Source of the DNA: an uncultured delta proteobacterium
GTDB taxonomy: Bacteria > Desulfobacterota > Binatia > Binatales > Binataceae
DNA: 64,000 nt
Reading direction: 5' to 3'
Assembly: GCA_963724765.1 (NCBI GenBank)
Contig: CAVRVY010000004.1
Location: forward strand, 576,001-640,000
In this document: one piece after another, positions 53,552-59,741 of the stretch
Layout: every line of letters begins with the position of its first letter
Numbering within the stretch: position 1 is the stretch's first letter
Program-made: the position numbers and the translations under genes
The notes under the pieces: model-generated
Seen by the model: the letters and a program-made list of their open reading frames with translations, nothing else
Databases searched by the model: none
What the model was told of the DNA's origin: nothing

Positions 53552-54759
53552 ATGGCGCGCAAGGACCGTAAGGATCGGGGTCTGTTCGAACGGCCAGCGG
53601 GTTCAGGCATTTACTGGATTCGCTACGCAGGACCGGATGGACGCGAACACATGGAGCGCGGCGGGACGAAGAGCGAAGCGCGCACTTCGTACATGCGGCG
53701 CCGAACTGAAATCCATGACGGCACCTGGAAATCGCCACGCGAGCGTCGCGCCGCGCGCCGCGAGGCTCTTGAGCCCACGACGAACGGATCATCTCTTTCG
53801 CTCGGCAACTTCGCACGCGCGTGGCTCGAAGAGCGCACGCCGCATCTCACTGAGCCCGTGCGGTACGACTACAAGCTGCTGCTCAACAGCTTCGTGTATG
53901 GACACGCGCTCGCAAGCAAGCCGCTAGCCGAAGTGAATGACGGCGATATCTCGCGGCTCATCAAGGACATCAGCGAGCGCAAGGGCCGCGGCAGCAAGCC
54001 GCTTTCGCCGCGCCGCATCAACATGGTGATTGGCCGGCTCCGTACCATCTTCGCGACCGCACACCGGCGCAAACTGATAGCGGATGACCCGATGCAATAC
54101 GTCGCGAACCTGCGCGAGCCAAAGTCTGACGTTGACCCGTTCGATCTTGGCGAGGCGCTTCGAATCATCGAGGCCGCGCACGGCTGGGAGCGTGCCTTCC
54201 TTACGGTGCTGATATTCACCGGCATGCGACCTAACGAGGCGCTGGCGCTCGCCTGGAATTCCATCGACTTCGAGCACGGCCTGATTCGCATAGGCGCACG
54301 GTGCATCGACGCTTCGGCTTCGGACTGCCCAAGACGCGCGGCTCCGAGCGCGACATCGAGATGAGCGGCGTTGTGCGGGCGGAGCTTCAGGAGCAACGGG
54401 CGCGCTCGCAGCTTCGCGGGGAACTGGTGTTCCCCTCAGAGGCCGGCACGACGATCGATCTCGCCAACTTCCGCGCGCGCAACTGGCCGCGGATCCTGCG
54501 CCAAGCCAAGGTGAGGTCGCGAGTCGTCTACCAGTGCCGGCACACGTTCGCACGTCTCGCGCTCGAACAGGGCGACACGCCGCAGCACGTCGCGGCGATG
54601 CTCGGACACACGACACTCGAAATGCTCTTCCGCGTTTACAGCCGCTGGATGAGCCGGCCCGAGTCGAGCGCCCTCGCCCGCCTCGACGCTGCGATCCGCG
54701 CGCATTCTAGTCACGGTTCCAGTCACGGTTCGGGGCTGAAATCGGGTGAAAACCAGTGA
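53552..54759 (+). pseudogene. Tyrosine integrase, one frameshift near 54293
   Basis: FTGMRPNEALAL, LPKT, YQCRHTFA (HxxR variant), MLGH, YSRW split between ORFs 53552..54364 and 54301..54759; AGGAGG RBS. Confidence 0.92.
54709..54730 (+). repeat. Arm-type repeat pair AGTCACGGTT x2 (right)
   Basis: 54709-54718 and 54721-54730, same 12-bp period as the left pair. Confidence 0.75.
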
Positions 54760-54905: not shown

Positions 54906-55136
54906 ATGCAGTGGACCAAGTGGTTTCCCAAGCGCCTCGCGCGTACAGAGCCTCAAGCACCCAGCCCGGAAGAGCGTCCAGCTGGGCATCCAGCGCCAGC
55001 GTTTGAGACGGCCCTATGCGCGAGATGCCGGCGCTCCTTGCGGCGTAACTCGCATCAAGTACGCGCGGGCCGCGCGCGCGAGCGTAACGCGCCTCGCGAT
55101 GAGTTAGGACGCTTTCTCGCCCGAGCTGCGAAATGA
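54906..55136 (+). CDS. Small basic hypothetical protein
   Basis: 76 aa, CARC and PRDELGRF motifs; ATGA overlap with the next gene. Confidence 0.45.
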   Translation: MQWTKWFPKRLARTEPQAPSPEERPAGHPAPAFETALCARCRRSLRRNSHQVRAGRARERNAPRDELGRFLARAAK

Positions 55137-55951
55137 GCTTCGCGTTGGTTTTGAGTTTCATCGCTTATGCGATTTTCGTGCTTGGAATGCTCGCTTCGGC
55201 ATTATGCGATCCTGAGCAAGACGCCACCCGTACCGGCGGTCAATCCGACAAACCAGAAGCTCCAGCCAAGCAACGCCTAGGTAAGACGATGTCGGATTAT
55301 GAACGCAGAATAGTCTATCTGACCGCGCTCATTGCCTCCGTAACTTGTGGTTATGCGCTCGTCGCTGCATTTCAATGGCGCGCCATGATCGTGAGCAACG
55401 ACACGACCAGGCAAGCTCTTGTAAGTGTTCAGCGCGCGTTCGTATTTCCAGATGTGGCGGGCCCGATTGAAGTGATGTTCGACCCTGGACCAAAAGGTAA
55501 GCTTACTCCTCTCGATTTTTTCCTGCATTGGAAAAACTCCGGTACGACTCCCGCGCGCCATTGCCTTTTAGATGTAAATTCGAAAAACACTGAGCAATTA
55601 CTGCCAGACGATTTTGCCTTTTCTGATTCCAGCGATGTTCCGAAGGCGATTACAATACCACCAATGACAGTAGTCACAGGTGGCGAAATACAGTTAACCC
55701 CTGATACCGTGATGTGGTACATGGCTAATCCCTCCCGCATTCTGTACATTTGGGGCTGGGTAAAATATCGGGACGTTTTTCCGGGCAGTCCGCCGCATTT
55801 AACTGAATATTGCGTTTACTCCTCGGATATTCCTCCAACTCCTGACCCGAAAAGCGGTCAGCTGCCCATAAAATTTAAAATGTGCAAAATTCACGATTGC
55901 AGCGACGACGACTGCCCCGATTATCGGGCTAAGATCGCGGACTACAAATGA
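55133..55951 (+). CDS. Membrane-anchored hypothetical protein
   Basis: Two hydrophobic helices, then QRAFV...KNSGTTPA...WGWVKYRDVF...HLTEYC. Confidence 0.75.
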   Translation: MSFALVLSFIAYAIFVLGMLASALCDPEQDATRTGGQSDKPEAPAKQRLGKTMSDYERRIVYLTALIASVTCGYALVAAFQWRAMIVSNDTTRQALVSVQRAFVFPDVAGPIEVMFDPGPKGKLTPLDFFLHWKNSGTTPARHCLLDVNSKNTEQLLPDDFAFSDSSDVPKAITIPPMTVVTGGEIQLTPDTVMWYMANPSRILYIWGWVKYRDVFPGSPPHLTEYCVYSSDIPPTPDPKSGQLPIKFKMCKIHDCSDDDCPDYRAKIADYK

Positions 55952-56125
55952 CCAAAGAAAGGTAACTATCCCTTCACTGTAGACTTTCGATCCGCTAAAA
56001 TTAGACCCGACAGGCCGGTTTCTAGTTCGGGTTCGTCGGACGGGGGCGACGACCCGCCATTAAAATGCCCGCGCCAAGCGGGATTCATCGCGTGGCCGCT
56101 AGCGGCGCTGTTTACAATCTTCGGT

Positions 56126-56821
56126 TCAATCGGCATTGGATCCAGCTTCAATCCATTCATCAATAAGGAGATCGGACACTGGAACATTTTCGTTCGGCAT
56201 GATCGCCAATGCGCCCAGATAGCCGGACTTTTCGACATGGAAAATTATCGGCGTTTGATGATGGCCTTCGGCGAATTCAAACCCATAATCGATACATCCA
56301 ACAAATGCACCATCAAAGATGTCGGCGCTATTCTTAGGTTTTACGAAGACATCCTGAATGAACGGTTTTTCTTGGCCGGGGAAAAGAGTAGTCCCCAGTG
56401 TGTGCGGGTTGCGTTTTCTTTTTCTCAATGGATCACAGGTCGCTCTCTGCGCAATCAAATAATCAATTTGCTTGCCCATGCCCGTAAAGTAAGGGTCTAT
56501 GTAAATCCAAGTCCCAGCGGCAGGCGAGTGCCCGACATTGGACAATATAAATCTAAAGCTATAACGCGCCCCCCTCTTGTCATGCGTAAGGTCGTCGTTT
56601 GGCAAAATGACCTTGATGTAAACCCAAGGTCTTTGCGACATCTCAAACTGCTTCTGCGATATTGCAACGCTTTGGCTAGTGAGATAGGCGAGCCACGCGG
56701 TGACGCTAGTATAGCCGATTACAACGCAGAGCCCGAACAAACCAAGTATAAAGGTGCCCACTTCAAGGGCGTTGTATTCACGACATTGGGATTTGTTCTT
56801 GGAGTTATTGGACTCTGGCAA
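56126..56821 (-). CDS. Passenger: membrane-anchored hypothetical protein
   Basis: TM helix, QRPWV...SNVGHSPA...GCIDY...HHQT; GGAG before TTG start; motif layout shared with 55133..55951. Confidence 0.72.
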   Translation of the reverse strand: MPESNNSKNKSQCREYNALEVGTFILGLFGLCVVIGYTSVTAWLAYLTSQSVAISQKQFEMSQRPWVYIKVILPNDDLTHDKRGARYSFRFILSNVGHSPAAGTWIYIDPYFTGMGKQIDYLIAQRATCDPLRKRKRNPHTLGTTLFPGQEKPFIQDVFVKPKNSADIFDGAFVGCIDYGFEFAEGHHQTPIIFHVEKSGYLGALAIMPNENVPVSDLLIDEWIEAGSNAD

Positions 56822-56979
56822 GGCATACTCCGTAGAAGAATCGCGATCGGATCTGCGCTAATCGTGGTTAGTACTCTTTTGTGTTTTGTTGGCCCTTTCG
56901 TATTTTTTGGATTGATTTAGTTTGCGGCGTCTAGATGTCAATTGATTGTAAATTTATGATTCACCACGACAGGCCGGAG

Positions 56980-57765
56980 TTAAAACCAGATGAGCCAGTG
57001 GGGGTTTGCAGAGAGAAGTCTCTCGAACTTCCATATCACGCTCTTGACTTCACTGATGATTTGTCGAAGGAGGCCGCGTACCGAGCGTGTGCTGATGTCC
57101 GTCTCAAAAGTTATGTCGAAGAGCAATTTCCCCTTCACTTTCACTTCGGACTGTGGAGTGTTGGCGGGGAACTCCACCTCGGCGACTATTGCGCCATCAT
57201 CAAGGCTGCCGTCATTGAACGTTATGATTCCACGCGTACCCTGAGTCTCGATACTGAACGCACCGCCGCGGTGCATTGTTTGAGTCACGGTGAGCAACTT
57301 ATGTTTGTCTCGGGCATCAAGTTCTTGAAGGAGCCAGAGCAAATTCTTTTTAGGGTCCGGTCCCATATACGGTTGCAACTTTCGGATTTCGACGATTGCG
57401 TCTTCATGGATGCGTTTCAAACGCCATCGTGTACTATCGAAGTCGGCGGCCTTCGCATAGATAGGAAAGGCGGTTCCTCGATCGGCGAGATCGCTACCGG
57501 CAAGCCGCCACGCGAGGTAGTCGAGAGTGGAACGCATATTGTGGACGCAATCACCAATGAGCAAGGCCAACTCAATTTGCGGAATAGATTTACTGATTTT
57601 CAACTTGAACAAATATTTGCTCTGTTCACTGTCGTATTCGTCGACAACGGCGTAGGGTTGCGTTTCGCGGAAGGCCGCTATTTTTGCTGTAAGCGTCTCC
57701 AGATGTATCTCGGCGCGCCCGATTTTATCCCAACATTCGGTTAAATATGATTTTCCAACAGTCAT
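56980..57765 (-). CDS. Passenger: helical hypothetical protein, possibly HEPN-like
   Basis: KIGRAEIHL...IGDCVHNMRSTLDYLAW...FPI...LQELDARDKHKL. Confidence 0.72.
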   Translation of the reverse strand: MTVGKSYLTECWDKIGRAEIHLETLTAKIAAFRETQPYAVVDEYDSEQSKYLFKLKISKSIPQIELALLIGDCVHNMRSTLDYLAWRLAGSDLADRGTAFPIYAKAADFDSTRWRLKRIHEDAIVEIRKLQPYMGPDPKKNLLWLLQELDARDKHKLLTVTQTMHRGGAFSIETQGTRGIITFNDGSLDDGAIVAEVEFPANTPQSEVKVKGKLLFDITFETDISTRSVRGLLRQIISEVKSVIWKFERLLSANPHWLIWF

Positions 57766-57807
57766 GGGATGGTTAGGCCCGACATTCTTTTAAGGGCGTT
57801 CTTATTT

Positions 57808-57948
57808 ATGGCACAGAAAAAGAAACCGACAGTAAAAGATGGCGAGATAGCGATTCCCGTCCCTAAGCGTAGCGACCTAGCGCGCGTGTTGAAGACAGCG
57901 GCGCAACCACTAAGGCCGCGCCGCCCGAAGAAGAAGCGTCCGGAATGA
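57808..57948 (+). CDS. 46-aa basic peptide convergent with the transposase
   Basis: MAQKKKPTVKDGEIAIPVPKRSDLARVLKTAAQPLRPRRPKKKRPE*; below the ORF-track cutoff; overlaps the transposase 3' end. Confidence 0.45.
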   Translation: MAQKKKPTVKDGEIAIPVPKRSDLARVLKTAAQPLRPRRPKKKRPE

Positions 57949-58771
57949 CGATTGACGGTCGTTGCGATGATTATAGCGCCACGCATACTCGCTCAGGTAC
58001 GACTGCAAATGCTTGCTGGAAACCGAATGATAGACGCCGCCGATCCCGCGCTTTACCAGCGACCAAAATCCTTCCAGCGAGTTAACGTGCACGTCGCCCT
58101 CAACATAAACTTTCGCCGCGTGATGGACGCGCTTGTGCTGAAAACCCAGCCCCTTGAGCGGATCGTAAATTCCGGCCTCATCGGTATAGACAGTCGAACG
58201 CGGCAATACCCGCTCGATGACGTGTGGCAGTACCGTTCGCTTGGTAGTATCGGGGACGACACGGGCAACTACCCGTCCGCCACGTTCCATCGCGCCCCAT
58301 ACTGGCTGCTTCCCTACCGCTCCACGACCGGAACCAAACCGCTTATTGGCGTGCTTGTTCTTTTCCTTTCCGCCCATGAAAGTTTCATCGGTTTCGACAG
58401 TTCCAACCAGATCGCGGATATTTTCCTCGAACATCGTGCGTATCTGCTTGAACATCCGCCACGCGGTTTTGTAGGTGACGCCAAGCTCTCGCTCAAGCTG
58501 TTTTGCGGAGATACCGCATCGGGTGCTCGTCATCAGATACATCGCATAGAACCACAGATTGCCGTTGCTGCTTGGTCGCGTATCGCTGGAACGGGCGGAT
58601 AGCAATGCACTTCGGGCAGCCCGCGTGGGTTCCGTCCGGCGAATAGCGGTCGCGCCACAATTGCTGCAAGCAGGCCTCGTCGTCGGGATACTCCGCGATA
58701 AACTCCATAAGGGAGCAGCGTGACTCCGAAGACGCACGGCGCGTAGGAGATTTACGGTCTTTCATCTGCAT
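57910..58771 (-). pseudogene. IS1595-family transposase with frameshift and probable internal deletion near 58557
   Basis: GCPKC zinc-ribbon half, GISAKQLERELGVTYKTAW, VETDETFMGG, VYTDE, HVNSLEGFWSLVKRGI, YHSVSSKHLQSYLSE. The second CxxC expected for the family is missing. Confidence 0.9.
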
Positions 58772-59741
58772 GAATATAGACTATCAAAACCGCGCTCTAC
58801 AGTCAAGGGATAATTACCCAAAGAAAATAGTCGAAGGTTTGAATAGACCAAAAAAAGTGCGCTCGCTTCCCGCTCGCGAACATACTACGGCCCCTCGGTT
58901 CCCTCGGGGCGTGGCTTCGCCAGAGAGTTGGGGGATCCAACTTGGCGCCACGCTCACCCCAGAGAGTTGGCAGAGAAGGTGAGTGGGGATGCTGCCCGGA
59001 GCATCGCTCGCAATCGCGATGTACATTCCACGGGGTTTTTACTGCCCCACGGCCGTTTGCGGAGCCTGTCAGGCTCCTCATAACGCCACGGCCGTCACAG
59101 CGCCATCACGACCCGTTAGTGTCTAAGCAGTAACGGGATTTGATCCGCTCTCGGCTCTGGCCGGATACCGTTCCCCTTCGCGTGGGCTTGTACTTTTGCC
59201 ACCTTGGGGCTTCTCCCGACTGGCTTGTCGGGCGTTTGCGGAAATGACCGGCTCGCCGCAGTGCGGCTATGTCGAAAGTGCGCAGCATGCTTCTTGTGAG
59301 CGTCGCAATCGATCCAGCCGACGCGTACGTCGAAACCTCGCGCCCGAAGGTGCTCCGCGAGTCGGAGCAACGTCTCGCGCTGCTTGCAGGTCATGGCTCG
59401 CTCGCGCGCACGACTCGGCCGCGCAGCTCGGCCGTCGTCGCGCAACGCGCTTCGCTCGCGCTAAGCAAACAGTCGACCCTTCGCCTTCGAGCTCGGGTTA
59501 AGAAGGCGAAGGGCCGACTGTAGGTTGAAGCTGACGAGGCGAGCAGTGCGGGCGCTATCCGCCTGGCTCGGGGCGACCGAGCTCCAGACGCCCCGTCAAA
59601 CTTTCTGCCTTGGTTCTGCCGCAGCGAGCAGGGATCAGCGTGAAAGTGAGTGGAATTGCGGGAATGCGGGCTTGATGAAAACCCACCTTTCAGGCGCGTT
59701 TTCATCCTTCGGGTTCCTCGTCGTTCCCGCTATTCGATGGA

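Follow-up and report, generated by a model that had tools for sequence, protein, structure and literature searches.

Structure of the element

The window analysed here is a stretch of 64,000 nucleotides (nt) from an uncultured delta proteobacterium (GenBank assembly GCA_963724765.1, contig CAVRVY010000004.1, positions 576,001 to 640,000), and the subject of this report is an IS1595-family insertion sequence (IS) at window positions 55961-58818, together with the open reading frames (ORFs) that lie opposite its genes. On the minus strand the element carries, in this order, a transposase gene (57910..58771) and two passenger genes, for which the labels pasB (56980..57765, 261 amino acids) and pasA (56126..56821, 231 amino acids) were coined. 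The plus strand carries an ORF of 269 amino acids over pasB (56935..57744), one over the transposase (57952..58602), one over pasA (56237..56920) and a short ORF between transposase and pasB (57769/57808-57948). All of these had been listed in an earlier reading of the sequence (the first-pass annotation), and all were found, the transposase as 57910-58737. The same annotation had proposed an IS1595 element with passengers, and this was confirmed by a DDE transposase of the IS1595/ISXO2 type (PF12762, E = 3.8e-43, 147.6 bits with a cut-off of 27), by terminal inverted repeats and by an 8-bp target duplication.

A second copy of the element, which attests to its mobility, lies at C2:2581-5518 of the host genome (G000; C1, C2 and C4 are sequences in it), is 100% identical apart from 80 nt and has other flanks. 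This copy encodes an intact transposase of 316 amino acids. The window copy is 80 nt shorter and hence frameshifted, with the transposase gene broken into ORFs 58771..58493 and 58737..57910, and is probably non-autonomous. A CxxC...CxxC pattern is present in the C2 transposase translation, and the corresponding region of the window copy is cut by the deletion. The plus strand of the intact copy is tiled nearly completely by four open stretches, at element positions 1-958, 972-1782, 1788-1986 and 1986-2841 of 2938.

The three long plus-strand ORFs are codon-aligned with the minus-strand genes, as had been claimed: the coordinates agree modulo 3, and the plus-strand stops coincide with TTA, CTA or TCA codons of the genes opposite. 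In a codon-aligned reverse frame, stops arise solely from these three sense codons (below, reverse-stop codons), and for this reason within-gene synonymous shuffling is unable to test openness, a null drawn from other genes being required. The reported counts were reproduced, with no reverse-stop codon in the 232 codons of pasA, such codons at positions 6 and 8 only in pasB, and six (TTA five times, CTA once) in the internal control, gene 55133-55951. The plus-strand frame of 56237, open from 55952 in the earlier listing, is stop-free from 55949 to 56918. GC content was 0.46-0.51 across the passengers versus 0.62 for the genome, and the argument that the plus-strand ORFs are not the usual shadows of GC-rich genes held on this count.

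Comparison with chance

The null set comprised 58 host ORFs, each of them long, below 0.54 in GC and free of any long ORF competing with it. TTA and CTA made up 19.3% of their Leu codons and TCA 12.6% of their Ser codons, and the median number of reverse-stop codons per 250 codons was 6.1, with a minimum of 1.6 (n = 58). Under this low-GC codon usage of the host, the probability of finding no reverse stop was 0.0028 for pasA and 0.00033 for codons 9-261 of pasB. Genome-wide (5.4 Mb), both strands were open in register over 200 codons or more in 2002 stretches, nearly all of them at GC of at least 0.6; only nine had GC of about 0.52 or less. Four of the nine were pasA and pasB of the element's two copies, and three more were passenger-like genes beside other IS1595 transposases.

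The latter three lie at G000 C2:281563-282366, C2:261812-262597 and C1:1250009-1250704, have GC of 0.48-0.50 and are each adjacent to an IS1595 transposase. The architecture is pasA-like in two of them, and the third is distantly related to pasB (27% identity). Further double-open stretches at C4:1597747-1598364 and C1:629280-630035 (GC 0.505-0.509) have no obvious IS link, and look like ordinary proteins on the minus reading and on the plus reading, respectively.

The pasB family and its reverse frame

PasB belongs to an unnamed family with 74 database relatives (its own entry included), none of which is annotated, and is confidently folded in silico (AlphaFold2 model, mean predicted local distance difference test score (pLDDT) 92.7). 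Homologue DNA was available for 36 loci (labels of the form L###), compared with the 74 database relatives. Loci L026, L027 and L039 have an internal sense stop and were omitted from the codon analyses; L011, a near-duplicate of L010, was omitted from the column tests. pasB was found 3' of a same-strand IS1595 transposase in 19 of the 36 loci. Pairwise identity was highest at codon position 2 (0.67), followed by position 1 (0.54) and position 3 (0.42), and this order identifies the sense frame as the main coding frame.

Of 31 homologue loci, 25 have a reverse frame uninterrupted by stops for 240 codons or more. Of the 22 non-redundant intact homologues (median amino acid identity 42%, about 50% GC), 19 are reverse-open along 90% or more of the gene, so that the openness claimed for the window copy extends to its family. 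Reverse stops are also present in three decaying copies, whose sense frames are themselves interrupted by stops. TTA, CTA and TCA together accounted for 8 of 5717 pasB body codons (CTA 3 of 442 CTN, TTA 1 of 130 TTR, TCA 4 of 148 TCN). Codons ending in A were otherwise common in the same bodies, at 14-31% in the other four-fold boxes, with AAA/AAG at 139/143, ATA at 64 and GTA at 44, and the TTA, CTA and TCA trinucleotides were frequent in the other two phases of pasB. Same-element transposase genes, used as a control, held 3-12 reverse-stop codons each; with transposase usage 5.3-9.0 were expected per pasB body, and none was observed in 18 of 23. The open reverse frame of pasB is not a product of chance.

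The first 16 codons of pasB were enriched in TTA, CTA and TCA (36 of 368), which places the end of the reverse ORF at pasB codons 4-12. At the opposite end, 18 of 24 rows have an ATG at a distance of 12-60 nt past the pasB stop; in some relatives the ATG falls within or just inside the terminal repeat. Purine-rich stretches precede the reverse ATG in several relatives, not in the window. Among seven distant pasB-like loci from genomes of the phylum, L095, L099, L100 (GC 0.47) and L101 have no internal reverse stop, L097 and L098 have one each and L096 has seven. A search of viral contigs for pasB gave no match.

PasB had no sequence match in Pfam, NCBIfam, PADLOC, PHROG or the PDB, and no Foldseek match in the PDB at E <=0.001. 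Its sole structural match was an unnamed viral protein in BFVD (A0A514TZW7, TM score 0.62), and protein atlas matches were confined to 'hypothetical protein' clusters. Assignment of PasB as a HEPN or Abi protein was considered on account of motifs and dropped, nothing being found in its support. The overlapping effector/immunity pair offered as an example in the first-pass annotation was likewise not borne out, in that pasA, pasB and the reverse ORFs gave no match in PADLOC, Pfam, NCBIfam or PHROG.

Constraint on residues of the reverse protein

Conservation of the third codon base was tested column by column, given the residue of each sequence and the codon usage of the family, with a threshold of p < 0.001. 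The third base was fixed in 24 of 239 pasB columns (0.24 expected), versus 2 of 168 columns in the transposase control. With 12 sequences in each set, the mean number of constrained columns was 9.6 (range 5-16) for pasB versus 1 for the transposase, and five such columns were found among nine pasB sequences that are all <50% identical. The constrained columns are spread along the whole of pasB, from column 24 to column 285.

At several of these columns the sense residue toggles and the reverse residue is kept. Sense Val/Ile is always GTA/ATA and gives reverse Tyr in 20-21 of 22 sequences; sense Val/Met is always GTG/ATG, at two columns two codons apart, and gives reverse His in 20-21 of 22. 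Reverse Cys is specified in 19 of 22 by sense Ala/Thr as GCA/ACA, reverse Ser in 22 of 22 by sense Arg/Gly as AGA/CGA/GGA, and reverse Arg in 21 of 22 by sense Pro as CCG/CCT. The base that varies at constrained columns is the reverse-synonymous one (TAC/TAT, CAC/CAT, TGC/TGT, TCN, CGG/AGG). Identity at sense positions 1, 2 and 3 was 0.62, 0.85 and 0.76 at the 24 constrained columns versus 0.53, 0.65 and 0.38 elsewhere, the third-position value being partly circular as the columns were chosen by their third base. In L017, the one intact homologue with three internal reverse stops, the Cys, the Tyr and one His of the reverse frame are missing as well. His-x-His and Cys among the conserved reverse residues hint at binding of Zn or another metal.

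Dual-frame substitution ratios agreed in direction. By OLGenie-like counting over eight independent pairs, with uncorrected p-distances near saturation, the reverse omega of pasB was 0.59 as dNN/dNS (confidence interval 0.52-0.67) and 0.65 as dSN/dSS (0.54-0.81), versus 0.85-0.93 and 0.91-1.28, respectively, in the transposase controls, with intervals reaching 1. The same codon was used for the same sense residue in 0.475 of cases in pasB (0.367 expected) and in 0.45 in the transposase (0.40 expected); this excess, and pairwise four-fold identity, were suggestive but are confounded by the differing dN/dS of pasB and transposase, and the pair L025/L046 gave the opposite result.

Judged from the homologue alignments, synonymous choices in pasB are constrained in a way that keeps its reverse frame open and conserves several of the reverse residues. 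That the reverse protein itself is under selection is suggested by the same alignments and is held with moderate confidence. The earlier proposal of selected dual coding thus stands for the pasB ORF, where openness and residue selection are both seen in homologues. It does not stand for the transposase, where openness was found in some lineages and residue selection was not.

Reverse frame over the transposase

The ORF at 57952..58602 corresponds to a reverse frame of about 285 codons in the intact copy. Two loci with an internal stop (L042 and L022) were omitted from the transposase alignment. In the transposase clade of the window the open reverse frame spans 284-293 codons, with four-fold sites near saturation; the distant copies L022 and L045 are also reverse-open, and a sister clade is closed, with 3-12 stops. 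Eight of the 13 distinct transposase copies in G000 are reverse-open. Stop counts in 25 transposase copies found elsewhere in the phylum were bimodal at equal GC content of third codon positions (GC3), with 0-2 versus 10-14 stops at GC3 0.45-0.52. On a tree of 46 transposases the open/closed trait requires 11 changes, compared with a mean of 15.7 in shuffles, 8 of 500 of which were as low. No residue-level signal was detected over the transposase (reverse omega 0.87 and 1.28; 2 of 168 columns). The open frame here, and perhaps that over pasA, is best understood as keeping the same plus-strand RNA translatable.

The small plus-strand gene

The short ORF at 57808..57948 (plus strand) encodes a basic protein of 46 amino acids and lies mostly between the transposase and pasB, overlapping the last 13 transposase codons. 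Relatives occupy the same place, on the strand opposite transposase and pasB, at 11 other loci in both transposase clades. Identity in the core was 0.69, 0.73 and 0.435 at its own codon positions 1, 2 and 3; the third position is the most variable, which identifies the ORF as coding on the plus strand. Grouped earlier with the antisense ORFs that tile the minus genes, it is instead a small conserved gene in its own right. Within G000 its occurrence is limited to the two copies of the element and a position beside the related IS on C1. It follows the end of the pasB reverse ORF by 64 nt.

Interpretation

From these patterns of codon use, ORF 56935-57744 is probably a real overlapping gene, pasB DNA thus encoding two proteins in the same codon register. 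Transcription of the plus strand would start at the end nearest the passengers and proceed inward; a promoter-like site lies there in the left repeat, and in relatives an ATG is found near the repeat. Translation of the reverse ORF would then end inside codons 4-12 of pasB. The reverse ORFs and the small basic-protein gene may form a plus-strand unit that opposes the whole transposase-pasB transcript. PasB and the reverse product share every codon and are read from opposed transcripts, and would for these reasons be inherited as one unit and probably expressed alternately.

Several results weigh against a functional reverse protein. Its AlphaFold2 model is poor (mean pLDDT 47.5, with 18 sequences), it has no match in Pfam or the PDB, and its profile matches just two database proteins, so that free-standing relatives are lacking. 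No Shine-Dalgarno-like sequence precedes 56935 in the window copy, in keeping with the caveat in the first-pass annotation that no clear ribosome-binding site precedes the plus ORFs. The double-synonym test of Dudas et al. was modestly positive and was negative for Ser, with a noisy control (observed/expected 0.26/0.19 for P, 0.23/0.14 for R, 0.14/0.10 for L and 0.04/0.06 for S). In L035 the frame is open yet deviates at 11 of the 24 constrained columns. The omega estimates are crude, dNN/dNS being biased downward by conservative sense changes, and column tests that assume independence overstate significance in related sequences, a point that the less diverged transposase control answers in part. 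A predicted complex of PasB with the reverse protein had a median score of 0.01, which is neither support nor counter-evidence.

An alternative of the 'ambigram' type, put forward for some narnaviruses and somewhat unlikely here in our estimate, is that translatability is selected and no functional protein results: the frame would be kept stop-free so that ribosomes cover the plus-strand RNA. Suggested gains are avoidance of Rho-dependent termination or decay, access to the small gene 57808-57948, or opposition to transposase and pasB expression. The transposase fits such an account well, being open without constraint on residues and having its open and closed forms scattered on the tree, as do the poor fold and the lack of free-standing relatives of the pasB reverse protein, the conserved small gene downstream and the almost end-to-end tiling of the intact copy. 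Left unexplained are the fixed third bases of pasB, which preserve reverse residues while the sense residue toggles, and the reverse omega of about 0.6; moreover, the frame is open in loci such as L019, L021 and L024, where neither a transposase nor the small ORF was detectable nearby. An open frame that is a side effect of constraint on the nucleic acid (RNA structure, sites for transposase or regulator, or site-specific codon preference) is improbable. DNA-level motifs do exist in these elements, as the invariant GACAGGCCGG (described below) attests, but depletion affects precisely the three reverse-stop codons, with CCA, ATA and GTA used normally, the varying base at constrained columns is reverse-synonymous, and those columns extend over the whole gene.

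Chance, or shadow ORFs of codon usage such as lie opposite genes in GC-rich genomes, is the least probable account, and a very remote one. Double-open stretches are plentiful in this genome at high GC, transposases with GC3 of 0.65-0.75 and about 0.1 A at third positions are expected to have few reverse stops anyway, and pasA is one gene only, with P = 0.0028. For pasB chance is excluded, the per-gene probability of no reverse stop being about 1e-3 with either of two independent control usages and the absence being repeated in 18 of 23 diverged homologues; the concentration of seven of the nine low-GC stretches in passengers of this element or beside IS1595 transposases also speaks against it. 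The overlapping-gene reading of pasB is accordingly the one we favour. A wider reading is offered tentatively and may well not hold, namely that a clade of IS1595 elements in environmental bacteria carries two-strand cargo. pasB and its reverse gene would then be an ancient co-evolving pair, other passengers and some transposases would be kept reverse-translatable, and the plus strand would constitute a second, opposing gene programme, acting as a two-state switch or as an effector/regulator pair inseparable by recombination.

Relation to known systems

Long conserved antisense genes in bacteria are disputed, and most candidates are short, young or situated in GC-rich DNA, where open reverse frames come free. 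Two conserved proteins encoded codon for codon on opposite strands would be a rare arrangement for bacteria. The pasB family offers a clean test case, with about 50% GC, dozens of homologues that are 33-50% identical and the transposase as an internal control, and the predicted reverse residues (Tyr, His-x-His, Cys, Ser, Arg) are mutable without changing PasB. Database entries matching pasB number 74 and those matching its partner two, which suggests that annotation pipelines confined to one strand miss a gene here.

IS1595-family IS with passenger genes are placed by ISfinder in the groups 'ISNwi1+' and 'ISPna2+'. The present element resembles them in its DDE_Tnp_IS1595 transposase, short inverted repeats, 8-bp duplication and extra genes not concerned with transposition. 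Codon-aligned reverse ORFs, or a small opposite-strand gene, in the IS1595 family were not found described in the literature covered, most subscription journals and ISfinder itself lying outside its scope.

Narnaviruses in which a reverse ORF is codon-aligned with the RNA-dependent RNA polymerase (RdRp) gene, termed ambigrammatic, were reportedly described by DeRisi and colleagues in 2019. They are also treated by Dudas et al. 2021 (PMC8155312) and Retallack et al. 2021 (PMC8316113), which, like the other papers cited in this section, are represented here by excerpts. These viruses, as set out in the excerpts, share with the present element a codon-aligned reverse ORF of near full length, avoidance of CUA, UUA and UCA, and a reverse product of no recognisable family. 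The likeness is a functional analogy only, since they are eukaryote-associated viruses with RNA genomes and an RdRp, whereas the element is chromosomal bacterial DNA with a DDE transposase. For Culex narnavirus 1, double-synonym analysis was used to argue that the reverse ORF of the RdRp segment encodes no functional protein (PMC8155312, as excerpted). pasB differs from the virus as portrayed there in its fixed third bases and its omega of about 0.6, which point to residue-level selection; the transposase part is more narnavirus-like. The 'ambigram' phenomenon would by this comparison be extended from RNA viruses to a bacterial DNA transposon.

In Tn5053, ardD lies antisense inside tniA, and its antirestriction activity against EcoKI was assayed (Balabanov et al. 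2012, PMC3533173). On the excerpted account, ardD, like the proposed reverse gene of pasB, is a protein gene on the opposite strand of a gene in a bacterial transposable element, with transcription running the other way. They differ in that ardD lies in the transposase gene and the pasB overlap concerns a passenger gene; the latter overlap covers nearly the whole gene, in an aligned frame. The Pseudomonas aeruginosa ORFs olg1 and olg2, 957 and 1536 nt long, lie antisense in annotated genes, and a case was made for purifying selection on them (Kreitmeier et al. 2022, PMC8850804). They are presented in the portions drawn on as evolutionarily novel, in a GC-rich genome and with translation evidence (PMC8850804), whereas the pasB pair lies in mobile DNA of about 50% GC, is conserved across homologues 33-50% identical and is known from sequence alone. 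By analogy, the closest system is the ambigrammatic narnavirus in form, ardD in tniA in setting, and the long antisense genes of P. aeruginosa in the claim made.

pasA and flanking motifs

pasA (56126..56821, minus strand) encodes a protein with an N-terminal membrane helix and of no known family. It has seven database relatives (own entry included), and a search for homologue DNA gave no match in 400 other genomes of the phylum or in viral contigs. Two other passenger-like genes of similar architecture are double-open at GC 0.48-0.49. No significant phmmer similarity was found among pasA, gene 55133-55951 and the two pasA-like genes on C2, which share architecture only and are for this reason not called a family.

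A match to a sigma-70-like promoter (TTCACT, 17-nt spacer, TAAAAT) faces inward on the plus strand at 55973..56001, with its -35 box inside the left repeat; it is a consensus match only, of which two occurred in the region versus 3.2 expected from shuffles. The DNA motif GACAGGCCGG occurs twice on the plus strand, just downstream of pasA (56009..56018) and just downstream of the pasB stop (56968..56977). It also follows the pasB stop in most relatives, with no synonymous variation in 13 of 18 rows. The peptide 'DRP' at the start of the reverse protein, considered as a conserved peptide, was rejected on that ground, the conserved entity being the invariant DNA motif. A terminator-like hairpin followed by a T-run, a pattern match only, lies after pasA on the minus strand (56068..56082). 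The segment of about 96 nt that contains GACAGGCCGG and the hairpin (56009-56104) recurs with 83% identity at C2:282382-282480, directly after a pasA-like gene.

Ends, insertion site and surroundings

The element is bounded by an imperfect pair of 23-nt terminal inverted repeats, at 55961..55983 (left, plus strand, GGTAACTATCCCTTCACTGTAGA) and 58796..58818 (right, minus strand), which agree at 21 of 23 positions. The C2 copy starts with the same bases as the left repeat. The 8-bp target-site duplication CAAAGAAA is present at 55953..55960 and again, with the same eight bases, at 58819..58826; the C2 copy has no target duplication. The insertion point is directly 3' of the TGA of gene 55133-55951. 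The frame of that gene runs stop-free into the element as far as 56918, a single stop parting the gene from the pasA reverse ORF, and in L034 the reverse frame is likewise open across the element end.

The IS1595 load of G000 is large, with 16 matches to the transposase domain, of which 15 are full length; where the other genomes of the phylum contain any, the number is 1-7. Two overlapping plus-strand ORFs at 53552-54364 and 54301-54759 resemble, going by their translations only, the two halves of a tyrosine recombinase/integrase, which suggests that a frameshifted integrase (53552-54759) borders a low-GC island. The interval from transposase to pasB is enlarged in some relatives by extra DNA with other small ORFs, amounting to about 1 kb in L028 (2130-2405) and 0.6 kb in L034 (2322-2784).

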